Below are positions 3,403 to 64,000 of a stretch of 64,000 nucleotides of DNA, piece after piece (the first letter of the stretch is position 1; every line of letters starts with the position of its first letter). Where the stretch lies: IMG/VR virus record IMGVR_UViG_3300030104_005222, positions 1-64,000 of that record. The stretch is one strand, 5' to 3'. The position numbers were made by a program, and so were the translations under genes. Origin of the DNA: an uncultured virus (IMG/VR IMGVR_UViG_3300030104_005222) (Duplodnaviria; Heunggongvirae; Uroviricota; Caudoviricetes). The notes beneath the pieces are model-generated. The model saw only the letters and a list, made by a program, of their open reading frames with translations. It did no database searches and was not told the DNA's origin.

Positions 3403-4311
3403 CTAACCAATGAGGTTAGTCAGAAGGCGCTTACGCTCCTTGTTCGTCTCGCGAGCCAACTGACGCTTGAGGTCACTGAGAGGCATAGCGCCGTCGAGTG
3501 CGTCATGGCTGGATTCTTCGACGAGGTCCCAGGTGCCGGTGGCCGCATTGAAGATACGACGTTCGTCTGCACCAACCTTCGACGCTTCGTTGGCTTCTTC
3601 GCTGGGGCGAACGGTGCGCGCCTCACGGATGCGCTTGGTGCCCTGCTTGGCGGCATCGAAGTTGGACGAGAAGTAACCAGCCTCCGACTTAGGGCTGATG
3701 CCATCGTTGCATGTCCAAGGCCAGAGGAAGTTCTCGCCGGTCTTGCCGTTGGTGCCCATGTCAGGGTAGAAGCTGATGGACTCGATGTCTTTCAACCAGT
3801 TCCACACCTTGACGGCGGCGTCGTATCGCTGCTCGATGGTGGCCTGACCACCTTGCCAGTGCTTACGCTGCTCGATGTTGTCGCAAGCGAGGATAAGTCC
3901 GATGGCTTCCTCGAAGCGAGCCGGAGAGAATCCGGTGTGAGCATGGTTAGGAGAACCACTACGACGAGTTACCGACGAATCACCAAGAAGGCTACCGAAG
4001 GCGTCATCGGAACCAAGCGCCGAAGCGTTCGGGTCGAAGGTCCACATGAAACGCAACAAGGTGTGACGAGAATGAACAGTCTCGCCGTCACGACCCTCGT
4101 ATGAGTAGTCACCGAAGACAACCGAGCCACCCTGGAAGTAAGACTCAACGGTCTGACGAAGGTCGCGGTGAGCATTACCCTCTGTCTGAAGCGGGATGGA
4201 CCGGAGATGCTTGACGATCATGCCGAGCAACTTGTTAGTAAGTTCGACGCGCTCTTCACGAGTGGCGACGAAACGAGCTTGAGTAGGGAACATTGTGATT
4301 GCTTTTGTCAT
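3403..4311 (-). CDS. hypothetical protein (about 302 aa), stand-alone transcription unit
   Basis: Long ORF with AAAGGA before the ATG at 4311 and its own terminator; no family recognised. Confidence 0.75.
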   Translation of the reverse strand: MTKAITMFPTQARFVATREERVELTNKLLGMIVKHLRSIPLQTEGNAHRDLRQTVESYFQGGSVVFGDYSYEGRDGETVHSRHTLLRFMWTFDPNASALGSDDAFGSLLGDSSVTRRSGSPNHAHTGFSPARFEEAIGLILACDNIEQRKHWQGGQATIEQRYDAAVKVWNWLKDIESISFYPDMGTNGKTGENFLWPWTCNDGISPKSEAGYFSSNFDAAKQGTKRIREARTVRPSEEANEASKVGADERRIFNAATGTWDLVEESSHDALDGAMPLSDLKRQLARETNKERKRLLTNLIG

Positions 4312-4503
4312 TGTACTTTCCTTTGTGTATGACATTTATGAATGAGTGTAATACTCACGTAAGTTATTAGAATAAAAGAGAAAAAGAGAAAAGAGAGAAA
4401 GAAAAAAAGAAAACTACACAGACACCTCCGGGTAAGAAAAAACATACTAAACCCAGGTGCATCACCACTTCAGCATTTGGAAGCTGGCATGTCATAAAGA
4501 AAC

Positions 4504-4947
4504 TCCTTGGTTCACCCAGAGTGACCAAGGATGTTTCTGGGATGCCCGAAAACATCTGCAGTAAATCAAAGATGAATAAAACAAAAGGTCACCGAGTCCG
4601 GTAGGACACCTTGAAATATAAATAAAAAAGGAGGTGACACCATGACCGGCAGGTCCGACCTAAACTTGGTTTAGGTCAAGTGGTCATCTTTGAACCGACA
4701 CATTCGTAGCAGCAACCGTAGACCGGATGACCAAACTTGTTTTGGTCACGAAGGGTTGACGTTCGCTGAGTGAATAATCAGGAAGGGACACCGAGCAGGT
4801 GTCCGAGGTTTCCGGATTATTTACCTTGGGCTTCTGGTTGACCAAGGGTCAAGCGGTCATGCGAGTGGCGCATATGACCGCAAGAAGTCTCAGCGGAAAG
4901 GAATGGAAGAGTTTATCCGGTCCAGAAAAAAGCTGACCGATAGGTCA
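4504..4947 (+). ncRNA. candidate large structured ncRNA (or structured ssDNA element), family unknown
   Basis: More than 10 nested or adjacent helices (see findings), A-rich linkers, G-U pairs favouring the plus strand, no long ORF. Confidence 0.5.
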
Positions 4948-5031
4948 ATCCGCCAAATGCAATCCACCCAATCCACCAATCGACCAACGAACCAATCCGC
5001 CCACCAAAGAAGCTGGTCAAACCAATCGGCC
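4946..5031 (+). repeat. degenerate CAATCCRCC-like short repeats
   Basis: Seven copies at about 4946, 4960, 4969, 4977, 4985, 4993 and 5023. Confidence 0.6.
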
Positions 5032-5273
5032 CAAGTGTTTTGTCGTCCGGATCCGCCCAGGGCGAGAAAAAGTTAAGTCCTACATGTAGTTAGACTTCCG
5101 GAGTCAACAGTGGGGGAGGGGGAGGTATACCCTATTCATCCGTAACCCCTATTGTTGTGGGGGCCTTTTCCGAACCGAGGTACTTTTCAAAACACCTTAC
5201 CGCTGTGGTATTACCACCTTGCCACGTTTAGCGTCCCGTGGTACGGTTTCATCGACTCAAACCTGGAACCACT

Positions 5274-5882
5274 ATGACAAAACAACGACCTAAGCCCATT
5301 CGTTTACACCTTGAACAAAATATGCTCGACCGATTGCAGGATTTAGTCCCAATGGTGGCCGAATCAGCCGCTGCGCGGGAGTTTGGGGTGGACGTGACGC
5401 TGAATACGGTGGCCAGGGTGGCGCTTTTGCGGGGTTTAACCTCTATGGAGGCCGCAATTTCTGGAAATGAGGCGCAATCTGCGCCCGAAACGGTGGTTGC
5501 GCCGCCTCCAGCCTTGGTTTTGCCCGCAATTCCCGCACCATCGGACTCCCCAACAGCAGATGCAGAGGATTTGCAGCCTTCTGTGGACGTAGAATTGGGC
5601 GATGACGGGTTTATTGTCGCGCCTGACGGCTGGAATCAGTGGTCTGCGTCGGAACGGGTACCTACTGAGCAGTCAAAAGTCGATGAATACTACAAATCGG
5701 GGGGTTTGCAGCGATATTGGGGTAGATCTGGGGAGGAAACCATTGTGTTTTACTGGTCACCGGACCCAACGAAGCACGATTTCCCCTCATACAAAGATTT
5801 AGACATGAATCGTAAAGAGATTAAAGTCCAAACCACACCATATGGACCTGGTCACCTGGTTCCTCACGGATGGGCACAATGA
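5274..5882 (+). CDS. hypothetical protein with possible N-terminal ribbon-helix-helix DNA-binding domain
   Basis: PKPIRLHLEQNMLDRLQDL...LNTVARVALLRGL pattern, then a Pro/Ala linker and a Trp/Tyr-rich domain. Confidence 0.5.
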   Translation: MTKQRPKPIRLHLEQNMLDRLQDLVPMVAESAAAREFGVDVTLNTVARVALLRGLTSMEAAISGNEAQSAPETVVAPPPALVLPAIPAPSDSPTADAEDLQPSVDVELGDDGFIVAPDGWNQWSASERVPTEQSKVDEYYKSGGLQRYWGRSGEETIVFYWSPDPTKHDFPSYKDLDMNRKEIKVQTTPYGPGHLVPHGWAQ

Positions 5883-29972: not shown

Positions 29973-32900
29973 GTGGCCGAAACTACCCCGCAACCTGAAT
30001 CAACTGAGCCACCTCAACCGTTTGAAGAAACGGAAGAGCAGAAAAAGAAGTTTGATAAGTTAAACACACAGTTAAACCTTACTTCTATTGGAATGATTTT
30101 TGCGGCTGAGCGTGATGCAGCATTGTCTATGGACGCTGATCAGGCTGAAGCAAAAATTAATCGCGGTGAGGCAATTGTTGATTTTGACGCGGCACTTAAG
30201 ATTGCGGAAAGAAAGACAGGTTTGACCCCGACTGAAACCGTTGAGGCTGCGACGTTTCAAAACATTCCGATTCAAGAAATGTTTGTGCGGATCACACAGG
30301 CGGGTGAGCCTGTTAGCGACGTCGTTAAGTCATATGAGGCCAAACGCGCGGAAGTTGGTCTGACACCTCAGCAACGTAGAGTAAAAAAACGTCAGTTTAG
30401 TATTGCGACACGTGGTATTCAGCGCATCGAGGCTGGCGAAAAAGAACTCGATCCGCAGATAAAAGAGCAAACCTTGACTCGTTTGCGTGGGATGTTTGAT
30501 CCTGAAAAGCAACCACCAAAAATTTATACTGGTGACGCCGCACTTGGCGAGGCTGAAGATGCTGTAATTAAAATGGGTCAGCCTGGGTACAATCGGATCG
30601 AAAAACTTGCGAATCGTATTACTGACCCCGAGATTGCAGACGACCCTGAAAGGGCTCAAATGCTGCGAGACATGTTGGCTGACCTGGGGCCACCTACTAC
30701 GGGTGCGATGGTCCGAGAAGCGGTCTCTGATAATGCGCTAAACGAAATGTTAGGCAAGCTATCCACGTATGATCTAAACAAGCAATCGACCGATAGGAAC
30801 ATCAAGCGGGGAACTAAAGAATACGAAGACCTTAAAAAGACGGTCTACAAGAACGCTTTATACGAAGCGACACTGCTGAAGACGGCGAATAAGTTTTTCC
30901 CTCCCATGTTTGTTTCGTACGACATGATTGACCCCTTGGGTAAGTTTTCTGACCCTGCGTCAGACAGGGACACATCGTGGATTAAAAAGATGGTCGATGC
31001 TGCCAGTGAGGTTCGTGTCGAGGTTGTCGGTCTTGATCGCAAGGGTAGCCCTATTTATCGGTTGACCCACCCCACGTGGCACGTTTTTGAGATGGCTGAT
31101 TCTGCGCAAGCTGCTGTTGCTGGTGTGGTTGAGCGTTTGGCTCGTGGTCCTGAAGATGAGCGCCTGGTGGATGCTTTTGCTGAGGGCGCTTTAGAGGGTG
31201 TTCGTAATCGACGGGATTTCCTCAAGGCCGCGATGTCGACTGAGATGGCCTCCAATAGCAAATTGGGTGCTGCGGCTGCTGGTTTTGGTGGATTTGCTGC
31301 GGCTATTCTTACTCCTGATCTTTTTATGGGTGCGGCAGCAGTTGCTCGGGCGACGAAAAAAGTTGCTGTTGCCGCAAAAAATGTACGTGCATTTAAGGCG
31401 ATGGCACCGGCATTGATTGATGAGCTTGGTGATGGCGCTGAGACGTTGGCAAAAGCTGAGCAGATCATTGGTGATGGTGTCGCCGACGCATTGAGTGCGG
31501 GGAACTATGACGAAGCGTTGAGACTTTTAGACGAAGCCAAAAAGTTTGCGTCTGATTCAGACAGGTTGATTAGTCAAGCACGTAATACCAGCGAAGATAT
31601 GGTTCGTGTTGTGGATCAACTAGACCAAGATATTGCTCGTAGACTAACGGACGAAATACCTGAAATGGGTATTGTTGAAGGTCGACGATTGGCGGCTAAG
31701 ATTCCAGGTGCTTTTGGGGCTACGGCGGAAAATTTGCACCCCAGTGTCCGTCGGGTTGAGTTGCGTGGATCTACGTTGGATCAACCTGTACCGTTTCCTG
31801 AGTTGTTCAACACACGGATGTCGATTGAGCACCTGCAGGATTCGATTCGATTACTGAAAAAGGGTGACATTAACGAGCAGTTTCTTATCGCCTACGTAGA
31901 TGAAGCCAATAAATTTAGCTCTTCGTTAGCGTCACTTATGTCCGACGCAAAAGTTGGTACGCAGACCGCAGGGTTGTCTGCTACTCAAAGACAAGCCTCA
32001 GTGGACTTGATTAATTACCTGACACGATACGAATCAACGCGTTTACTAAGAGACGATCCGAATGCGTGGGCGAGTAAAGTAAAACGCCTCGCTGCAAATT
32101 TACCGTTTGATCCAGATGATTTAGCGGCAAATCGTAAATTTTTATCCGGGTTAGACAAAGCGATTACGGAAACGTTAGCGTCAACGAAATCATTGAAGTC
32201 TAAGTTGAAGACTACGGTCACGATAGCTGACGCAACTGAGGCTACAGCAAAGGCGACTAAAGCCTTGCGGGGTCAGTTCGAGTCTCGTGCCGCTGCTATG
32301 GCGTTTGTACGAGAGAAAGTAGCTAAGCAGGCAAACATTGAGGTCGATCCTTTGCTTGTTCCGTTGACCGAAAAGCATAAAGCGATTGGTCGAGAGGGTT
32401 TATCTCCCGAGGGGCTTAGCTTTTTACGTCAGATTGAAATCGCCGTTCCTGGCCTTAAGGGTGATGACGCATTGCGCATCATTAAAATCGAGGATCAGAA
32501 AGCTCGTAAGTGGGCCAAGACAAATAACAGCACTGTAGGTAAGTACTATGAAGAGCAGTTTCGACTCTCAAATGTGGTCGAGGGTCCTACTACGGCTACT
32601 AAGCCACCCCCAACACCGACTACACCAACTCCTTCTCCTGCACCAACTCCAGCACCAAAACCACCACCAACGGCAGGACCGAAGCCTACCGCCCCTACGC
32701 CGACGCCTAAGCCTTCAACACCTGCGCCGAAGCCTGCTCCACCTGAACCACCAACGCAGGTACCTTTACCTACTACTTCTGTTTCTCAGGGTTCCAATAA
32801 AGCGGCGTTAGGCTTAGTTGACGACATCATAAAAACGGCGCAAAGAATTGATAGCCCCGGTGCTTCGGAACTTGCCTTTCGTTTAGGTCGTGAGAAAAAA

Positions 32901-35900
32901 CGACTGAGTAGTTTGCCGATAAATGAAATTGGTCCTGCTGTTGCTGGTTTGGTACAAAAACGACTTGTGGGTCAATATGGTAAGGGTGATTCAGTCGAAG
33001 TTGTTTTAGGCAGTCTTGACGACACAGGTGAGTTGGTAAGTAAACTTCGTCAGCTTCAGGACCTTGGAACACAACGAGCACCAACAAGTACTCGCGGCGC
33101 GTTTGAAGGTCCTGTAGGTAGTGCGCCGAAGCGCGTTGAGTTGGATGGTGTTGCTCCCAAGGATTCGATAATCGATGGGAAGACGCCTCTTGAGCGACGA
33201 CTCGAACCGAATGAAGTGCACAGATACGACATAATCAGATCACAACCACCGGAACCAGGTCTTAGCTCTGAAGTCTTATTTAACCATCTTATTGGAGTTG
33301 ATGACGGAATTGAGGTTCTTGAATTTTTGTTGCGTCATGGTGAGTTAGATTCAACACGCGCAATCGCGAAAAGAATTTTACCTGTTTTGAAGCGTGAGTT
33401 TAAAGACGAAAAACTCAACTTCAAAATTGTTCACGGGTCTAATTTTCGTCGTGGTGTACGCGGAGATTATACAGATGCTACAGGCTCAGTAAGAATTCGC
33501 GGCGAAAATATTTTTAGTCGTACAGATGATCGATTCCCTGATCTAACTGACACTGGTTTGAATGAGGGGACGATTTTACATGAACTAATTCATGCGGCGA
33601 CGGTACGTTACATTCGAGGAAATCCTAGTTCAAAAGAAGTTAAAGCACTAAAAAGTTTAAGTGGTGAAATCAAAGCTGGACTACAAAAGCTCCTGGATGA
33701 CACACCCGATTTACCTTTAGACGGTAGTGCTGAAAGAGCTTTACTTGCTGAACAACGAAAAGATCTTGTCCATCGATTAGGTAAGTGGGACAGTTACTTC
33801 GGTACGCCAGTTGAAATGGTGACCTTTACACTGACGAACCCTAAATTCCAAGAAATGTTGCGGACCATTAAGGTTACACCGAAACAAAGTTTGTGGAACA
33901 AGTTTACTCGAAAAATTGCTAACATTTTTGGTATCAAAGCAGGTGACGAAGAGTCTGCTTTTGCTCAAGCAATTGTTGCGACGGAAGACATTATTCGTGC
34001 GTCTTCTAAGCAATTTGATCGCCCCCTAAGAGAGTCTTTATTCGAACTAACAGCAACTCAAAAGCTTAGAAACACCAACATATTCCGTTATGGTGCGTCA
34101 ACCGAAGGTTTAAACAACGGTAACTTTATCGAGGTAGAGATAGTCACCCCAACACGAGGGGCGTCCTACCGGAGTAGACTTGGCCCCAGAGAAATGCGCG
34201 TCAGGAGTATTGAGCTTTCAGATGATGTTAAAAATACTGGTTTGGGTACGGAAATATATATTCGGGCTTTGCGCAAGGCTCAAAATGAGGGTGCGGCTTT
34301 TGTCAGCGATGTAGGTCCGAGCCCTGATGCTTTACGGGTTTACGGTACGCTTGAAAGGTACGGGATTAAATTCCGTCGTCGTGGCGTTCCTTCGGGAATG
34401 ACGGCTGAAATTTCAGACCAGTTGTTTATTACTGCTGACGATCTGAAACGGATTGACCTTCAAGATGTGTTGAATCAACATGTCGCACGAAAGACTCCAT
34501 CGGATGCAGTGTTTTCTATGGTGCCGAATGTGGCATCTAATCGAGTCGTAGTTGAGCGATTAGACGACGGTCGAATCTTTTTGCGGGCACTGACAGATAC
34601 TGCAACTGCTGATGACTTTATTCGTGCCCTTGGCTCCGCTTCTCGCCGTAATCTTGATGAGTCCGACATGAAAGCTCTCGTAGCTTGGTTGGGCACTAAG
34701 GGCGTTAAGGTCAGTCACAATGGTGCCGTGTTTACCGCCAAAGATCCAGCGACCATTGAGCGTGCGGAAGACGAGTTTGCAAGTGCGTATTTAACTTACG
34801 TTCGATCTGGCCGGGCGGATAAACCAGAAATTAAAGGCGCGCTGAACAAAGCCTCTGAGTGGTTGAAGGATACATATGCGGCTGCGACGGGTCGAAGTGT
34901 TGGTGGCCCACCTCCTGGTATGGATCCTACATTGACGAAAACGCTCGACAAGATGCTACGTCGTCCGTCAGATCAAGTTTCGTTACCCAACATTTTTAAA
35001 ATTACGAAAGACGCTTTGTTTTCTACCAGCGTCAAGGGTACTGAAATCGACGTCGGTCAAGAGATTCTGCGCGTGACATATCGTCTGGGCTATCCAATGG
35101 CAGAAGACGACCTTTCAAAGCAGATGACTAAAGCGGCAAAACTGTACTCTGAAGGCAAAAAAGATCAGGCAGTAATCAAACTCCCTGGCCCAGTTTCATT
35201 CGGCGGTCGGTCAGCAAAAGATGAGTATTCGTTAGACGAGATCATTAAGATTCAAAGTGAGCTTGAGTCAGCAAAACTTTTGGACATGTCAGACACTTCT
35301 TTGTTGCCGCTGGGCGGGGCTCATCGAGGTGTGGGTGAGAGGAACGCGTCGGAAATTGTGGAGCAGATCGTTCACGGTAGTCGGGCTGGTGGCGTATTCA
35401 AAAGCCTTTACTTGGGTGGCGATGCGTATGCCGACATGAGAAGTTTGCCCTTGATTGTTCGTGAAGCAATTCAGGGTGGTGCTCGAAAGGTGCAGCAGGC
35501 TGTGGGTGAGACGATCACGTTGGTTACAGAGAAAGACGTCACCAACCTCATGCACTACCTGACGGGTAAGGCAGCTATTCAGTTTGCTAAGGGTGGTCGG
35601 TCGGCTGTGAGTGCTGGTCATGACTCTATGGGTGATGTTGTCGATAGTTTACGTAAGTACTTTGAAGCGGTGGCAAGCACCCCTGAAGGTGAGCGTAAGT
35701 TAGAAATCGTTTCGGACTTTTGTCAATTGGTGCGTGAGCGGGGTAGCAGCGCCAAAGCTATTACTGAGATTAAAAACCGTGGATATGACCAAGAAGAATT
35801 AATGGCCGCGTTTAGTGAGATTGTGCGTGGCAAGAAAGCAAATCGGTTTTTGCGCGAGACATTCCAGGCCGCAGGATTCAAAGCTGACGATGAGGCCCGC

Positions 35901-38585
35901 TTGTTACCGGAGTACTTTACTCAAGCGCGGTATGGTTCGTCCGGAACACAAGATGCTGGTGGTCTGCTCGAAACGATGCTGTACTACGCAGATCGTGTAC
36001 CACGAGAATACAAAGGTAAGGGTCAACTGTTCTCTGAGCGATTGGCCGCAGAGGGTATGGATGCCCAGCGATCTGAAGCAACATTCTTGCGATTGTACGA
36101 AGATCTGAACACAGTATTTAAAGACGACTCAAACGTTTCTAACCGCGTGGCTATTTTGATCGCGGCTCATGGTCACGCAAACAAGGCTAAAATGGAATGG
36201 GTCGGCATGGGTATCGCTGCCGACGAAAAGCTCAACAAGAGTATCAACCGATATTTCTTAGGTGAGTTTGTTGCCGATGAAGACATTGCTCAGGTAAAAC
36301 GATTCTTCGAAAACATGGGTTACAACCCGAATATGGTTGAAGCTTTTGACCTTTACGGACAAAAGATGTTTATTCCTGCCCAAGCTCGTAAGCGTTTGTC
36401 GATGGCGTTGGATCAAGCAATGGACCCTGCAATTCGTAAGCAGGTGGGTGGAGACTTGTGGGACGCGTTAGCCGAGCCAGAAAACATTATACGCGCTGGT
36501 GTATCTGGTAAGAATGAGTCGGCAAAAATGACTGCGGCGTTGTTTTACCGCTACCTTAAAACACGAATGGTTCGGGGTCACTACATCCTTAAGGCCAAGT
36601 ATTTTTGGATGAACACATTCGATCACTTTAATCAAACTGCACTACGTTGCGGGTACAGCACAGCGTTGGTATCTACGACACGCATGGTTTCTCAGAACCT
36701 GTTGTCTAACAATATCGGTCAAGCGTTTGTTGCTGCCGCACGCATGATGGGCCGTGGTCAGAGTGTTGAGGATGTTCGTCGGGTACTTCAAAGCTTTGGT
36801 GACGAGGGCGCAAAATGGGCGGGCAAACTGACCCGATCGTCGAAATGGCACATTAGCGTCAACGATGTTTTGCGGGGTGGCGACACGATTATTATGGTCG
36901 GTGGTCGACCCTACAAAGCAAACGATTTGCGTCAGCAGTTTTTGGAAGCTGGTATTTTTGCCTCGTTTGATACGAGTCAATTGGGTACGAAAATTCAAAA
37001 CGTCGGCAACTTGTTCCTGGACGAGGTTGCGAAAAGCACTTCAGGTAAGACCCGCAAGATGTTTAAAGACATCAAAGATGACATTAAAGGGGCATCAGAA
37101 GATATTGCTGAGGCGTGGTCGGAGCGCGAGCGTTTGGGATTGGCGATAACCTTAATGGAGAAAGGTCTCGATCCTCGTACAGCGGCTCGGCTTACGATTG
37201 ATGCGCTTTACGATTACGCAGGTAGCATGTCTAAGGGGGATCGAAACTTCCTCTTGAACCTCTTCTTCCCTTTCTGGGCTTTCCAGAAGAACGCAAACCG
37301 CCATATTTTCGATACGATTTTTAGTCCTGAAGGAGCGTACCGTTTAGGCGTAATGCGCAGGTTCCATGACAAGGGGTCGGATGTAGCAAGTGAGTTGGCG
37401 TACTTAGCTTCGGTAGATGAAAACGGTGTCGATGTTGATGCATTGCCTCCTGATCTCAGGCAAAGCTACTTTGCACTTAAAAAGCAAGTGTACGAAAGAC
37501 TAAGTGTCGACGGTCAGGTGCCGCCATTAGTGCGCCATGAGCTTCGTATGTTTATTTCAGGTTCGCTTTATGGCTACCATGGCGGTCAATTATTGGAGTC
37601 AACAACACCATTAAGTGACGAGATTTCGGCCATAGCGGACGATCTACGGGACGAAAAGACTGGCGAGAGAATGCCGATTGATCGTCGCGCTCTTGCGTCT
37701 TACTACGTACCAAGAACAGATCGATCATCTTTGCCCGGTTACTATCGCGACCGCATATCGTTGCGGTTCCCGTACACGCCGTCAGACTACGAAGAGACTG
37801 TTCGCGATCCTGCTGTGCCAGGAGAGTTTAACGACACGATGAAAACGTGGTTGGATCTATACCGCGCGAGGAATGTCGATGCCCCATACGTGGGTCTGTT
37901 TATACCTGAGGCAACTTATGTCGCGGCGTTCAACCACATGACCTATTTGACGTCTTCGATGATTATGACAATGCAAAAAATCGAAGACATGGGTGACAGT
38001 TGGTGGTCCGATGAAGATGATGGCTCAGACGCGATCAATCCGTACACAGGTTTGTTGGCCTTGGCTACACCAGAACGAGCGCCAATTTTGTCTGACCTCC
38101 AAGCTGAATTAGGTCTCGGCGGTAATCAAGTGCCGCGAAAAATGGCGTTCGCAATGGTTTACACGGCTCAAATGTTCAACATGGATATTCTTGAGATCGA
38201 TGAAAAAGACGATCCTTTTGACGTATTGAATAAAATGCAGCGAGCCAAAGACGAGGGTGAGGAATTTGAGTTGCCGCTTTTGGGTACCGACAAGAAGATC
38301 AAACCCGGTATGCGGTATTACTTAATGCCGGGTGTGGCTCAAGCGGCTTTCGTTAACAGTCCGTTTGGTGAAATGAACGATCTTTTGTTAAAGTTAGAAA
38401 GAACTGCACCGGAAAAAGCTGCGGGCTTACAGGGTCGATTGCAGCAAGTTGCTCGTGGACTTACTGGACTTGAGATTAAGGATGTCTCAAGAAGTAAGAG
38501 TGCGGCACAAGAAATGTTCCGCGCCAGAAAGGAAACCCCACAAAAAGTAATCAAGAAAGCACAATCGAGGGAAAAACTCAAATAG
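29973..38585 (+). CDS. giant internal virion / polyvalent protein (2870 aa) with zincin metallopeptidase and GNAT-like domains
   Basis: ILHELIHAAT (HExxH), KNTGLGTEIY GNAT motif A, C-terminal YDY...FFPFW. Confidence 0.75.
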   Translation: MAETTPQPESTEPPQPFEETEEQKKKFDKLNTQLNLTSIGMIFAAERDAALSMDADQAEAKINRGEAIVDFDAALKIAERKTGLTPTETVEAATFQNIPIQEMFVRITQAGEPVSDVVKSYEAKRAEVGLTPQQRRVKKRQFSIATRGIQRIEAGEKELDPQIKEQTLTRLRGMFDPEKQPPKIYTGDAALGEAEDAVIKMGQPGYNRIEKLANRITDPEIADDPERAQMLRDMLADLGPPTTGAMVREAVSDNALNEMLGKLSTYDLNKQSTDRNIKRGTKEYEDLKKTVYKNALYEATLLKTANKFFPPMFVSYDMIDPLGKFSDPASDRDTSWIKKMVDAASEVRVEVVGLDRKGSPIYRLTHPTWHVFEMADSAQAAVAGVVERLARGPEDERLVDAFAEGALEGVRNRRDFLKAAMSTEMASNSKLGAAAAGFGGFAAAILTPDLFMGAAAVARATKKVAVAAKNVRAFKAMAPALIDELGDGAETLAKAEQIIGDGVADALSAGNYDEALRLLDEAKKFASDSDRLISQARNTSEDMVRVVDQLDQDIARRLTDEIPEMGIVEGRRLAAKIPGAFGATAENLHPSVRRVELRGSTLDQPVPFPELFNTRMSIEHLQDSIRLLKKGDINEQFLIAYVDEANKFSSSLASLMSDAKVGTQTAGLSATQRQASVDLINYLTRYESTRLLRDDPNAWASKVKRLAANLPFDPDDLAANRKFLSGLDKAITETLASTKSLKSKLKTTVTIADATEATAKATKALRGQFESRAAAMAFVREKVAKQANIEVDPLLVPLTEKHKAIGREGLSPEGLSFLRQIEIAVPGLKGDDALRIIKIEDQKARKWAKTNNSTVGKYYEEQFRLSNVVEGPTTATKPPPTPTTPTPSPAPTPAPKPPPTAGPKPTAPTPTPKPSTPAPKPAPPEPPTQVPLPTTSVSQGSNKAALGLVDDIIKTAQRIDSPGASELAFRLGREKKRLSSLPINEIGPAVAGLVQKRLVGQYGKGDSVEVVLGSLDDTGELVSKLRQLQDLGTQRAPTSTRGAFEGPVGSAPKRVELDGVAPKDSIIDGKTPLERRLEPNEVHRYDIIRSQPPEPGLSSEVLFNHLIGVDDGIEVLEFLLRHGELDSTRAIAKRILPVLKREFKDEKLNFKIVHGSNFRRGVRGDYTDATGSVRIRGENIFSRTDDRFPDLTDTGLNEGTILHELIHAATVRYIRGNPSSKEVKALKSLSGEIKAGLQKLLDDTPDLPLDGSAERALLAEQRKDLVHRLGKWDSYFGTPVEMVTFTLTNPKFQEMLRTIKVTPKQSLWNKFTRKIANIFGIKAGDEESAFAQAIVATEDIIRASSKQFDRPLRESLFELTATQKLRNTNIFRYGASTEGLNNGNFIEVEIVTPTRGASYRSRLGPREMRVRSIELSDDVKNTGLGTEIYIRALRKAQNEGAAFVSDVGPSPDALRVYGTLERYGIKFRRRGVPSGMTAEISDQLFITADDLKRIDLQDVLNQHVARKTPSDAVFSMVPNVASNRVVVERLDDGRIFLRALTDTATADDFIRALGSASRRNLDESDMKALVAWLGTKGVKVSHNGAVFTAKDPATIERAEDEFASAYLTYVRSGRADKPEIKGALNKASEWLKDTYAAATGRSVGGPPPGMDPTLTKTLDKMLRRPSDQVSLPNIFKITKDALFSTSVKGTEIDVGQEILRVTYRLGYPMAEDDLSKQMTKAAKLYSEGKKDQAVIKLPGPVSFGGRSAKDEYSLDEIIKIQSELESAKLLDMSDTSLLPLGGAHRGVGERNASEIVEQIVHGSRAGGVFKSLYLGGDAYADMRSLPLIVREAIQGGARKVQQAVGETITLVTEKDVTNLMHYLTGKAAIQFAKGGRSAVSAGHDSMGDVVDSLRKYFEAVASTPEGERKLEIVSDFCQLVRERGSSAKAITEIKNRGYDQEELMAAFSEIVRGKKANRFLRETFQAAGFKADDEARLLPEYFTQARYGSSGTQDAGGLLETMLYYADRVPREYKGKGQLFSERLAAEGMDAQRSEATFLRLYEDLNTVFKDDSNVSNRVAILIAAHGHANKAKMEWVGMGIAADEKLNKSINRYFLGEFVADEDIAQVKRFFENMGYNPNMVEAFDLYGQKMFIPAQARKRLSMALDQAMDPAIRKQVGGDLWDALAEPENIIRAGVSGKNESAKMTAALFYRYLKTRMVRGHYILKAKYFWMNTFDHFNQTALRCGYSTALVSTTRMVSQNLLSNNIGQAFVAAARMMGRGQSVEDVRRVLQSFGDEGAKWAGKLTRSSKWHISVNDVLRGGDTIIMVGGRPYKANDLRQQFLEAGIFASFDTSQLGTKIQNVGNLFLDEVAKSTSGKTRKMFKDIKDDIKGASEDIAEAWSERERLGLAITLMEKGLDPRTAARLTIDALYDYAGSMSKGDRNFLLNLFFPFWAFQKNANRHIFDTIFSPEGAYRLGVMRRFHDKGSDVASELAYLASVDENGVDVDALPPDLRQSYFALKKQVYERLSVDGQVPPLVRHELRMFISGSLYGYHGGQLLESTTPLSDEISAIADDLRDEKTGERMPIDRRALASYYVPRTDRSSLPGYYRDRISLRFPYTPSDYEETVRDPAVPGEFNDTMKTWLDLYRARNVDAPYVGLFIPEATYVAAFNHMTYLTSSMIMTMQKIEDMGDSWWSDEDDGSDAINPYTGLLALATPERAPILSDLQAELGLGGNQVPRKMAFAMVYTAQMFNMDILEIDEKDDPFDVLNKMQRAKDEGEEFELPLLGTDKKIKPGMRYYLMPGVAQAAFVNSPFGEMNDLLLKLERTAPEKAAGLQGRLQQVARGLTGLEIKDVSRSKSAAQEMFRARKETPQKVIKKAQSREKLK

Positions 38586-49657: not shown

Positions 49658-50254
49658 CTACTTTGTAGGTGCGGCTGGTGTAGGTGCGATTGCATCATTC
49701 AGCATATCGAGAACCTTCATAAGCCCTTCTGGTGGGCCGTCATCACGAGCTACTACCTTTACGTCGTACTTGGCACTGTTGTCTGATGCGCGGGTATTCT
49801 CGCTGTGATTGGCTACAGATCCGTGCACCGTCACTTCACAACTAAACAGCCCAGCATTGTACTTGGCTTTAGCTGTGAGGTCAGCCTTGCTGTCTGAAGT
49901 GGTCTTGGTTGAAGTAGAAGACTTCACTTCCATGGTGAAGTTGACATCTACTTCTTTCACAGACAAAGCGGGTGGATTCAACAGCGCAAGTGACGGAACC
50001 TTGAGGTTTGTCTTTTGCATTGTTGTGTTGCCCGCAGCATCCTGTACCGGCTTCTCAAAGCTGAAGTCTACGGTGCGTGCCGTAAGGTTGCCCTTACCAT
50101 CATCGTTCATTCCGACGTCGTTAATGAAGTCGGCTGATGCCTTAGCAAGAAGCACTTGAGCGTTACACGCAGCTTTGAGTGGTCCACCAATGAGTTGTTC
50201 CATCGGAAGGCCACCAAACTGTGATGACATTTGTACAAGGCCGGAATCCGCCAT
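49658..50254 (-). CDS. DUF2589-like protein
   Basis: F.GLPME.LIGGPL.AA..AQ..LA....FI..VG; VP.LALL..P.L.V..VDVNF.MEV; R.SDNSAKY.V.V.A....PEGL.KVLD.L. Confidence 0.8.
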   Translation of the reverse strand: MADSGLVQMSSQFGGLPMEQLIGGPLKAACNAQVLLAKASADFINDVGMNDDGKGNLTARTVDFSFEKPVQDAAGNTTMQKTNLKVPSLALLNPPALSVKEVDVNFTMEVKSSTSTKTTSDSKADLTAKAKYNAGLFSCEVTVHGSVANHSENTRASDNSAKYDVKVVARDDGPPEGLMKVLDMLNDAIAPTPAAPTK

Positions 50255-50534: not shown

Positions 50535-51029
50535 CTATGGAAGCAGTTTGATTAGTTGATCGTCGATTCTTGCATAACCTTCTGGGGGCTCGCTGCCTTT
50601 GAAGATCAGCTTTAGTTTAGCAGCATTGTTTTCTTTTTTGAACCATGATGGTGTATTAGCGCATGGCCTCACCATTAACTTACCTTTTTTCTTGTCCGCA
50701 GTGAGGCCAGAAATCTCAACAGACATTTCAACTTCAAGTGTATCAACACGCAAACTTTGACCCGTCGTAAGCGACTGGAGCGGGACCTGAATTCTTTTTT
50801 GTACCAGTACTCCATCTTCCCATGTTGGGAGTTCCATGACGACCATACGAGGTGCATATATGTGTCTTCCGTCGTCATCTGTAATCGGGTCACCTTTTTC
50901 ATCGACCTTTAGCTCCCAAAACTCTTGACTCGTAATTGAGTCAAGCTCATGCCTTTCAGCGATATCGGTCGCAGCTATAACCGCTGATTGTATGGAATGA
51001 ACGATGTCGTCTAAAGAATGATCCGCCAT
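50535..51029 (-). CDS. DUF2589-like protein (second, shorter type)
   Basis: L.DIV..IQ.AV..A...; VPL.SL....SL.VD.LEVEM; ..KL.FKGSEPPEG..RI.D. Confidence 0.7.
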   Translation of the reverse strand: MADHSLDDIVHSIQSAVIAATDIAERHELDSITSQEFWELKVDEKGDPITDDDGRHIYAPRMVVMELPTWEDGVLVQKRIQVPLQSLTTGQSLRVDTLEVEMSVEISGLTADKKKGKLMVRPCANTPSWFKKENNAAKLKLIFKGSEPPEGYARIDDQLIKLLP

Positions 51030-62503: not shown

Positions 62504-64000
62504 ATGGTGAAAATGGAAAGTGATGGCTCAGCGACGGTAGAAGAACCTCGCAGTGCAGAACAGGCTGAGCCCAGTCGAACAGCAGGAGAACAGGCTGAAG
62601 AGATTATTCAGTCTTTATTGTCTTCGTTGCAAGAGGGTAATCGAGTAGAACAACGTGCTGCTTGGGCAGAGTTGCATGACCCAGACATCATGGCCACGTT
62701 GGCCGATGGGTGGAGACAATCGGAAGGCACGTTGAGTGCGGCGCTTTCGATCATTGAAACAATACCAGGACAGGTGCAAAGGTCTCGTACGTTTCGATCT
62801 GCGGTTAGGCGCTTGGCAGAAGAGCGTAGTCGTCGAGACGCCGAGGCTATGCTGGATCAACTTGAGGAAGAGTTGGGTCAACCACAAACGTTGGCTTTGG
62901 CGTTTGGTCCTGGTGCACCACCACCCTCTGTTGTTGAGCACCAAACGTTGGAGACGCTTCATGTCCCAAGGGGATACGAGATTGATCTGACTGGTGTGTA
63001 TCGTTTAGCCGCATCAGTAGACGGAACGATCAACAGAACAAAGATTGCTGCCGCACCGATTTTTATCGGGGGCCGGACGATTGATGTGTACACGGGCGAG
63101 GCAAAGCGTCAGGTCATCTGGCGTGGTCCAAGCGGCTGGTGCTCACGTGTTATAGAGAGACGAACAATTTTAGACGCTTCAAAGATCGTCGCATTGACGA
63201 ACCTGGAAGCACCAATCAATTCAAACACAGCCGGTCAGATGGTTTCGTACCTGTCTGATTTCGAAGCTGAGAACAGTCATAGGTTTCCTGTGGTACGTTC
63301 TGCGGCTCGGATGGGTTGGCAACCTGACGGTGGGTTTTTATTACCCGATGTGTTTTACGCTGCGAATGATGAGGCAAGTTCCAATTTTGCTTTGACTCCA
63401 CCAAGCGGGCTAGAAACTTTATCATCTGGGTGGACTACCGCTGGATCCTGGGACGACTGGATCGAAGCGATGGAGCTTGTCTCATCATTCCCTTACATGT
63501 ACATCGCTACATACGCGGGTGCTGCTGCACCATTGCTTTCGATACTGAAGATCCCTGGCTTTGTTGTGGACTTTAGTGGAGAGACAAGTGGTGGTAAGAC
63601 TACTGCGTTGCGATTTGCTGCTTCTGTTTGGGGTCGTCCCGCTGAGTCATATCCAACAGCCATGTATTCCTGGGACGCTACGAAGGTTTGGATTGAACGA
63701 ACCAGTGGGTTCCTCAGTAATCTACCGTTGATTCTCGACGAGACGAAACGTGCGCGTCATCCTCGTATTGTGCGTGATGTGATCTATGACTTTTGTCAGG
63801 GGCAGGGTCGTGGTCGTGGATCGGTCGAAGGTACACGGCACACTGAGTCGTGGCGTTCTGTGTTGATCAGTAGTGGTGAGGGTGCAGCGACATCGTTTTC
63901 TCAAGATGCAGGGACACGGGCACGCGTGTTGAGCCTGAAGGGTAAACCTTTGGGATCAGATGTAACCATCGGTTCACGAGTCAGTGAGGAAGCGCAGGTA
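62504..64000 (+). CDS. DUF927-containing replicative helicase (Cch-like), truncated by the window end
   Basis: Translated manually (absent from the track because there is no stop): VPRGYEID..GVY, RMGW, GSWDDW, SGETSGGKTT, LPLILDE, GQGRGR, W.SVLISSGE. Confidence 0.85.
   Translation, partial: MVKMESDGSATVEEPRSAEQAEPSRTAGEQAEEIIQSLLSSLQEGNRVEQRAAWAELHDPDIMATLADGWRQSEGTLSAALSIIETIPGQVQRSRTFRSAVRRLAEERSRRDAEAMLDQLEEELGQPQTLALAFGPGAPPPSVVEHQTLETLHVPRGYEIDLTGVYRLAASVDGTINRTKIAAAPIFIGGRTIDVYTGEAKRQVIWRGPSGWCSRVIERRTILDASKIVALTNLEAPINSNTAGQMVSYLSDFEAENSHRFPVVRSAARMGWQPDGGFLLPDVFYAANDEASSNFALTPPSGLETLSSGWTTAGSWDDWIEAMELVSSFPYMYIATYAGAAAPLLSILKIPGFVVDFSGETSGGKTTALRFAASVWGRPAESYPTAMYSWDATKVWIERTSGFLSNLPLILDETKRARHPRIVRDVIYDFCQGQGRGRGSVEGTRHTESWRSVLISSGEGAATSFSQDAGTRARVLSLKGKPLGSDVTIGSRVSEEAQV

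Follow-up and report, generated by a model that had tools for sequence, protein, structure and literature searches.

A candidate modular RNA structure in the divergent control region of an uncultured Caudoviricetes phage

An uncultured marine Caudoviricetes virus (IMG/VR record IMGVR_UViG_3300030104_005222) carries a densely paired element in a 938-nt gap between two divergent gene blocks. Judging from its conservation across homologs, we propose that this element (4486/4504-4947) is probably, though far from certainly, a functional plus-strand RNA structure representing a new modular family. It is present once per genome, in a constant position within the divergent control region, and the copy described here is a compact one. 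The window analyzed, from which all coordinates are taken, is the 64,000-nt stretch formed by bases 1-64000 of the 73,173-nt record, which was rated complete by CheckV. An original prediction, made by a model from the letters alone, had listed 15 helices in this gap and suggested a novel structured RNA.

The three-way junction of the 3' half

The compensatory changes lie in the 3' half of the element (domain 2), for which the following features were defined:

4721-28/4915-22, plus strand: P1, candidate closing helix of domain 2, with a CCGG core
4728-4748, plus strand: P2 hairpin, TGACCAAA-CTTGT-TTTGGTCA
4762-4897, plus strand: core of domain 2, a three-way junction of P3, P4 and P7, with P5 and P6 inside P7
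4762-69/4890-97, plus strand: P3
4770-84/4810-24, plus strand: P4, with a tip hairpin at 4786-92/4798-4804
4825-28, plus strand: linker CTTG
4829-35/4883-89, plus strand: P7, enclosing P5 and P6
4838-43/4847-52, plus strand: P5, with a three-base loop
4853-60/4874-81, plus strand: P6, GCGGTCAT.../...ATGACCGC
4934-4947, plus strand: terminal tetraloop hairpin, TGACC-GATA-GGTCA, following an A-run

The core helices are those of the original prediction, with P3 and P7 each trimmed by one base. The minimum free energy (MFE) fold of 4716-4947 alone is the consensus junction, and the same helices were recovered by separate MFE folds of nine homolog segments as well as by folds of the whole gaps. RNAalifold, applied to a MAFFT alignment of seven sequences (A5), returned P3, P7, P5 and P6 (27 pairs, eight of them changed on both sides). 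With the P4 pairs added, 95.8% of the 215 cells at 34 pairs were paired (shuffled mean 90.6%), nine of the 34 pairs were changed on both sides (2.8 in shuffles) and the covariation score was 0.182 (shuffled mean 0.087). None of 500 shuffles reached any of these three values, counts that are not probabilities because the sequences are few and partly related. Moving the 3' partners by one to three columns as a control left 25-48% of cells paired and 0-3 pairs changed on both sides. Additionally, a block-anchored alignment gave 54 consensus pairs, 90.1% canonical and 17 changed on both sides (33-43% canonical in slid controls). Two MAFFT alignments of whole segments (A3 and A4), with the CTTCTGG block misaligned in three rows, were left out of the counts.

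The compensatory changes can be followed in individual helices. P3 reads GCTGA/TCAGC in most homologs, GGTGA/TCACC in contigs L002 and L131, and ACTGG/TCAGT in L005. P5 reads GGTTGAC/GTCAATC in L005 and GGTTAGCC/GGCTAATC in L007. In L005, where P4 is missing, P3 and P7 form one continuous 12-bp helix. P6 belongs to the arms that are exchanged whole and takes the form TCGATC/GATCGA elsewhere. We conclude that the 3' half is conserved as a structure (nine pairs with compensatory changes), and the junction P3-P4-P7 with P5 and P6, whose helices are kept with such changes across homologs, appears to define a new family.

The outer parts of domain 2 are more variable. Relatives are able to form P1, which is part of the MFE fold in three of them, with an invariant CCGG core. 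The window shares its P2 sequence with L005 and L009; L007 shows a G.U variant of it, and unrelated stems stand in its place in L003 and in L016/L057. The site of the terminal hairpin holds GGTCGC-GCAA-GCGAC in relatives, and in one near relative another stem bears the GATA loop. On the minus strand, the terminal hairpin resembles a weak terminator (a hairpin followed by T6).

Folding, strand and comparison with known RNA families

On both strands the segment 4504-4947 folds far better than its dinucleotide shuffles, in line with the original prediction. With RNA parameters, the MFE of 4504-4947 was -167.4 kcal/mol on the plus strand (z = -7.06) and the minus strand gave z = -7.69, with 0/100 shuffles as good in either case; DNA parameters on the plus strand gave z = -8.96. 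Each half is also stable by itself on the plus strand with RNA parameters (4504-4715, z = -4.82; 4716-4947, z = -6.23; 0/200 shuffles for both), and the element appears to fold into two domains with these limits. The next 326 nt (4948-5273) are unstructured under the same settings (z = +1.49, 94/100 shuffles folding as well), which places the end of the structured element near 4947:

4486-4947, plus strand: whole structured element, with the 5' limit where near-relative contigs resume aligning and the 3' limit at the last hairpin

All 15 helices of the original prediction are present in the sequence at the coordinates given there, and an inverted-repeat listing also recovers helices (I6, I7, I8, I11, I12, I14, I16, I18, I22 and I2). 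They cannot all form in full, however, since four pairs of listed helices have bases in common (4530-31, 4728, 4770 and 4889). Several wobbles were described as G-U on the plus strand, and such pairs are found at 4772.4822, 4830.4888, 4538.4548 and 4763.4896. Linkers are A-rich, and several four-base loops are of the G-N-N-A kind. The non-coding character is borne out by near relatives, in which arms are swapped and indels of 1 or 2 nt occur. Open frames of 45-62 aa within the gap were considered as genes and rejected because near relatives show frameshifting indels; they also have replaced segments there.

The 5' half (domain 1) contains the following features:

4504-4556, plus strand: two 5' hairpins, 4504-15/4521-31 and 4530-41/4545-56, overlapping by 2 nt
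4566-4693, plus strand: domain 1 multibranch, closed by the perfect 10-bp helix 4566-75/4684-93
4628-4674, plus strand: Shine-Dalgarno-like word, AAGGAGGTGA at 4628-37, and short frame

One arm of the multibranch (4588-4638) consists of GTCACC/GGTGAC, GTCC-GGTA-GGAC and an A-rich loop; the other (4642-4687) consists of ATGACC/GGTCAT, GACC-GGCA-GGTC and the 9-bp hairpin 4657-77. Among the differences listed for near relatives, none of the 11 substituted sites in 4557-4720 hits the helices of the original prediction, which occupy 58 of these 164 positions, and two of the listed substitutions fall in a small CCTT/AAGG helix predicted by MFE alone. A further 35 differences lie beyond this listing, so the count may fall short. 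Further upstream, a change in near relatives (4549 A>G) converts a C.A mismatch to a C-G pair in hairpin 4530-56.

The word AAGGAGGTGA is a perfect 10-nt complement of the 16S rRNA 3' end and lies 7 nt before an ATG (4642) that opens a 10-codon frame (stop at 4672-74). It is sequestered by pairing in helix 4588-93/4633-38. Near relatives show a single substitution here, 4650 C>T, a synonymous one. This feature is lineage-specific, with no counterpart in other lineages, and a conserved leader peptide was rejected, the frame not being kept in other classes. The longest complementary matches to E. coli rRNA are 10 nt, a length also reached in 76/200 (16S) and 107/200 (23S) shuffles. Among such words only the Shine-Dalgarno-like word is notable, by its place.

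The plus strand had the lower MFE in all nine homolog segments (by 0.1 to 12.8 kcal/mol). Further, the 34-pair core contains nine G.U/U.G cells and no A.C cell, and the 54-pair consensus has 32 G.U against 5 A.C, while the local composition (A > T, G slightly > C) means that chance would favor A.C. The more stable folding and the G.U pairs without an excess of A.C therefore assign the structure to the plus strand.

This asymmetry does not separate RNA from plus-strand single-stranded DNA. A DNA-level signal, either folded single-stranded DNA or extruded hairpins, might serve as an origin accessory beside the iteron-like AATCCGCC repeats, as a priming or helicase-loading site, or as a group of N4-type hairpin promoters, all of which we consider quite improbable. 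Such a signal would agree with the stable fold under DNA parameters, with the tolerance of DNA for G.T wobbles and with the direct octamer repeats adjoining the element. The genome also codes for a DUF927 primase/helicase, for a family-A DNA polymerase fused to a uracil-DNA-glycosylase domain, and for a giant protein:

29973-38585: 2870-aa protein with a partial match to the PHROG family of N4-type virion RNA polymerases

The match (phrog_2206, E = 6.8e-10) covers residues 1188-1369 only. No Pfam family was found on this protein and no RNA-polymerase domain in the 47 proteins scanned, no match was found among solved structures, and a language-model look-up gave weak leads (0.80-0.81) to polyvalent-protein domains. 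Its identification as an N4-type polymerase is not established.

N4 early promoters, as PMC4496689 describes them, are short hairpins extruded from supercoiled DNA and used by the virion RNA polymerase. They have a conserved -17 to +1 block, a GC-rich heptamer centered at -11 and flanking inverted repeats, and three such sites, with defined contact bases and a start site, are spread ahead of early genes (PMC4496689). The likeness consists of short GC-containing hairpins with 3-nt loops on one strand, in a ~73-kb phage with a giant protein weakly matching the virion polymerase family. However, the hairpins here differ in loops and flanks, share no common block round a start site, are nested in other helices spanning 60-190 nt, precede no gene, and cluster within 450 nt (4643-4947) rather than over the early genes. 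These hairpins therefore do not fit the definition of N4-type promoters. Nor do the TGACC/GGTCA loops of 3, 4, 5 and 13 nt fit a dimeric protein on duplex DNA. Finally, the long-range helices P3 and P7, with compensatory changes in strands 60-135 nt apart, and the junction that they form would need long-lived single strands, which a double-stranded DNA phage would rarely expose. For this reason, and from the A-rich linkers and the G-N-N-A loops, we infer that the element acts as RNA.

No known RNA family was recognized, as had been claimed. Rfam 15, which covers GOLLD, ROOL, OLE, pRNA, C4/CI, group I/II introns, RNase P, tmRNA and 6S, gave no match at gathering thresholds in the whole window and none at E <=1 in the loci of four relatives. 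For 4300-5300 at E <=10 it gave five matches at the level of chance, none better than E = 0.79 and scoring 14-19 bits where the thresholds are 37-90. ARAGORN found nothing in 4300-5300. Its only call in the window, a "tRNA-Stop" (anticodon tta) at 63305-63399, lies within the coding frame of the DUF927 primase/helicase and is probably a false positive. A word search of the literature, in which the element is not searchable by sequence, yielded no description of it. The idea of a novel structured RNA thus holds as regards the lack of an Rfam match and the conserved plus-strand structure; it is the best supported of the readings, and the element is probably RNA.

The large ornate RNAs GOLLD and ROOL of phages and prophages (compare "Naturally ornate RNA-only complexes revealed by cryo-EM"), which lie beside tRNA genes, are the closest comparison. 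Like the element, they are several hundred nt long and phage-carried, with many helices, multi-way junctions, variable arms and a function that is unclear from sequence; neither was matched here by Rfam even at E <=10. The element differs in its less constant core, some lineages lacking sub-domains, and in its location in a divergent control region, and it gives no signs of multimers.

Relatives, exchange of arms and repeated hairpins

Relatives were collected via the downstream protein and via a conserved word just 5' of its start. A pattern scan of metagenomes returned 119 stretches, mostly chance matches, from which we retained only those bearing a longer conserved motif. A long structured gap (0.9-1.3 kb) with pieces of the element is present in eight further viral or metagenome contigs (L002, L131, L003, L016, L057, L005, L007 and L009), and the size of the element varies from ~450 nt to ~1 kb; L010 and L040 hold partial copies. 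A sequence profile of the core domain (nhmmer) matched once per element-bearing genome and nowhere in the other loci of 160 records (535,805 nt), a set that includes ~100 unrelated metagenome loci. Among viral contigs, the exact hairpin word had no match and the module word occurred only in three already known contigs. The downstream protein had no match among phage-database proteins and no relative in the genomes of 185,579 bacterial and archaeal species, so that neither a host nor a prophage copy is known.

The near relatives, DNA contigs of four marine runs, are ~90% identical to the window over 4486-4911. One of their substitutions, 4841 A>G, turns an A-U pair into G.U. In one near relative the P4 arm is identical to that of L009 at 52/54 positions, compared with 36/58 for the arm of the window, and both fold as hairpins. 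In one contig of this group, 4912-4946 is swapped for 136 other letters. At the P5 site, L003 and L016 carry an insert of ~100 nt, which is shortened in L057. In these comparisons, the arms are exchanged, inserted or lost as entire hairpins, and the junction persists.

Some relatives have an extra domain of ~350 nt between the junction and the repeats (L002 3400-3660, and L005/L009/L040), bounded by two CGCGAGGA words. The window is without it, and L131 looks like a deletion between the CGCGAGGA words. Comparison of L002/L131, L016 and L040 reveals two compensatory pair changes in a hairpin GGCAATCACG-YAT-CGTGATTGGGG.

The repeated use of TGACC/GGTCA in the stems was evident. The best 450-nt window (start 4501) contains 13, where ~0.85 would be expected, and the count does not rise above 5 in the rest of the 73-kb genome. 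Four of the five TGACC/GGTCA hairpins with loops of up to 11 nt in the genome lie in 4728-4947 or 4643-4678; the fifth is inside the terminase gene. The AAACTTG core said to be shared by two stems occurs at 4662 and 4733, so that hairpin 4657-77 and P2 look like duplicates, and GGTCAAG(T/C)GGTCAT is present in two copies (D8 and D11). These two repeats make internal duplication of hairpins the best explanation for the reuse, and near relatives, which have other stems at those places, make a sequence-specific binder less probable. In the related genome G001, a different hairpin family, GGTCGC-NNAA-GCGAC, occurs in three exact copies in the same gap and strand and nowhere else in 71.7 kb. Dispersed palindromic repeats and intrinsic terminators were rejected, since the TGACC/GGTCA density is unique to this stretch and the G001 family is confined to the same gap.

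Such turnover could also mean that the gap has no function and is a sink where palindromic modules accumulate, duplicate and recombine, with structure as a by-product. The recurrence of a private module in each genome (TGACC here, GGTCGC-NNAA-GCGAC three times in G001), the exchange of a module between lineages and the coming and going of whole domains all fit this idea, as does evolution faster than in the flanks: one near relative shows 48 differences over 426 nt, along with 20 gap positions, compared with 8 differences over 454 nt downstream. It fails, however, to explain the compensatory changes in strands 60-135 nt apart, the plus-strand G.U bias, the conserved unpaired sequences of the junction and the domain 1 helices free of listed substitutions. 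Moreover, the modules are found nowhere else in either 72-73-kb genome, unlike mobile palindromic repeats. We therefore judge it very improbable that the element lacks a function.

Several observations weigh against a functional RNA structure. No helix is common to every homolog: P5-P7 are absent from L002 and L131 and P4 from L005, and in L007 another hairpin, of 11 bp, takes the place of P4. Distant relatives of the downstream protein (L136-L152) have shorter gaps without pieces of the element. The homologs number only seven to nine, several of them closely related; the P4 pairs were added to A5 by hand because MAFFT had split the 3' strand of P4, and the bounds of both A5 and the block-anchored alignment were chosen by hand. 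The CCGG core of P1 never varies and so offers no covariation. With the exception of its A-rich loop, which resembles an A-rich loop module placed elsewhere in the elements of other lineages, domain 1 (4504-4715) can be clearly matched in the near relatives only. It is consistent with a structure but weakly tested, covariation having been counted in domain 2, and its hairpin 4530-56 loses three outer pairs in near relatives. The minus strand and DNA parameters give z-scores as strong as that of plus-strand RNA. Additionally, no RNA run is listed as containing the stretch, a promoter scan stayed at the level of shuffles (one site against a mean of 0.9) without a convincing promoter, and no convincing plus-strand terminator follows 4947.

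Setting in the genome and possible function

The first 98 nt of the window recur exactly at the end of the record (73073-73170), and the record is therefore a circular assembly with an arbitrary start, despite its label as linear. The description of the element as lying near the genome end is thus meaningless, which deprives the proposed single-stranded DNA signal of its argument from position. The genome codes for a portal protein, a large terminase, a major head protein and an SNF2-type helicase. Its terminase is only ~23-26% identical to those of cultured phages, and neither blastn of the gap nor megablast of 20 kb found a nucleotide match in 50,697 phage records. Two paralogous DUF2589 proteins are encoded on the minus strand (49658-50254 and 50535-51029; E = 6e-45 and 2e-15).

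To the left of the gap lies a block of small leftward genes that begins at or close to 4311-4335 and continues past the record start to ~66 kb; the neighboring protein of this block (310 aa) has no relatives among viral contigs. To the right, a rightward gene has its real start at ATG 5274. Around the element we noted these features:

4366-4415, strand unassigned: polypurine tract of ~50 nt, read as pyrimidines in the leftward operon's 5' leader
4947-5060, plus strand: repeat zone, unstructured, C 38% and G 16%, with direct repeats AATCC(G/A)CC(A/C)(A/C)
5111-5124, plus strand: G-run GGGGGAGGGGGAGG followed by the palindrome GGTATACC, kept in relatives
5198-5243, strand unassigned: operator-like element of abutting 7-bp units TACCGCT/GTGGTAT/TACCACC (5198-5218), with a fourth, GTGGTA, at 5238-43
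5274-5882, plus strand: downstream gene, 202 aa, with a ribbon-helix-helix-like N-terminus (weak)

The polypurine tract is kept as a feature in L003, L016 and L131 and is skipped as a repeat by read mapping. The AATCC(G/A)CC(A/C)(A/C) repeats, in a single orientation and with four to seven copies per genome, are present in every element-bearing relative. They might serve the phage primase/helicase as iterons, bind a protein as an array or, on RNA, form a tract for Rho loading. On the plus strand, a G-quadruplex or R-loop could arise from the G-run, which is G5-A-G5-A-G2 here and G7-A-G3 in relatives.

RHH_1 was detected in one of seven members of the downstream protein family (E = 0.18). The predicted fold (mean pLDDT 63) had no Foldseek match at E <=0.001; the TraM N-domain (4qpo_A) ranked 31st, with a TM-score on the target of 0.81 and E = 1.5. 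Ribbon-helix-helix repressors bind tandem heptads, and the heptads located 30-75 nt before the downstream ATG look like the gene's own operator, by analogy with such repressors. Between unrelated flanks, the segment 5184-5243 recurs in many marine contigs and at high depth, and is thus a widespread operator- or promoter-like signal. The base of P4 with its 3' linker (4770-4830; GTG..TAATC ... GATTA..CAC-CTTGG) resembles the operator palindrome and flank GTGGTATTACCAC-CTTGCC (5205-5223), and the P4 arm may derive from an operator duplication with a central insertion.

For the functional RNA structure that we favor, one mechanism can be sketched. The element would be transcribed rightward from near the leftward promoter, and the transcript would continue through the unstructured, C-rich and G-poor AATCCGCC repeat tract (4947-5060) toward the operon led by the ribbon-helix-helix gene. 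As a long regulatory leader, its fold would decide whether a termination factor or another single-strand-binding factor is loaded on the C-rich tract. This is the most likely of the mechanisms considered, although taken by itself we think it somewhat unlikely. It is weakened by the operator-like element near the start of the downstream gene, which makes it probable that this gene is served by a promoter of its own.

In lambda tR1, a hairpin is joined to a C-rich Rho-loading sequence, an arrangement that resembles the hairpins and C-rich tract described here. The antitermination leaders of lambdoid phages, which follow an early promoter in the transcript and render RNA polymerase resistant to termination, are likewise folded RNAs in an early control region, with short hairpins and 4-5-nt loops. 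They measure ~30-70 nt, in contrast to 450-1000 nt here, and we identified no boxA-like word, N-like protein or upstream promoter for the element. Lambda nut (boxA/boxB) and HK022 put RNA are examples named in PMC4496689.

Alternatively, the element could be a stand-alone, trans-acting structured RNA gene (a scaffold, a decoy, or a packaging or assembly RNA) with its own start and end between the divergent promoters. The structural evidence for such a gene is identical to that for a leader. The operator-like heptads of the downstream gene are also found in many contigs without the element, so that the operon can do without a leader. The behavior of the element is that of an insertion into an ancestral ~500-nt gap, and its size is free to vary between ~450 nt and ~1 kb. 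On the other hand, such a gene would have neither a promoter nor a plus-strand terminator after 4947 that we could find, no partner protein was identified, and the loss of sub-domains in some lineages argues against a single precise three-dimensional machine. We consider a stand-alone RNA gene unlikely.

ColE1 RNA II is a pre-primer RNA and offers a further analogy for the favored plus-strand RNA: a structured RNA of several hundred nt directed toward a replication-control region, with a G-rich run downstream (5111-5124 here) and a family-A polymerase in the genome. In contrast to ColE1, there is no partner like the antisense RNA I and no sequence similarity, and the comparison is an analogy only. 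Taken in its widest form, our proposal is a new class of modular RNA of ~0.45-1 kb, built on a three-way-junction core that tolerates swaps, which would act as an RNA-level switch of the divergent early control region, either via factor loading on the C-rich tract or by priming or organizing replication beside the iteron-like repeats. We give this proposal slightly less than an even chance.

Few classes of large structured noncoding RNA are known in bacteria and phages, and each of them opened new biology. If our reading is true, the element would be a rare addition to the few ornate bacterial and phage RNAs longer than 400 nt. The candidate recurs in marine metagenomes, in a phage lineage without a cultured relative, and its evolution is unusual in that close relatives trade entire arms but retain the junction. 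It is placed where the phage decides between its two divergent gene blocks. At 136-460 nt it would, if transcribed, be tractable by probing, by cryo-EM and by in-vitro assays of termination or priming; should it instead be a fold of single-stranded DNA, it would mark an origin-type signal in this lineage.

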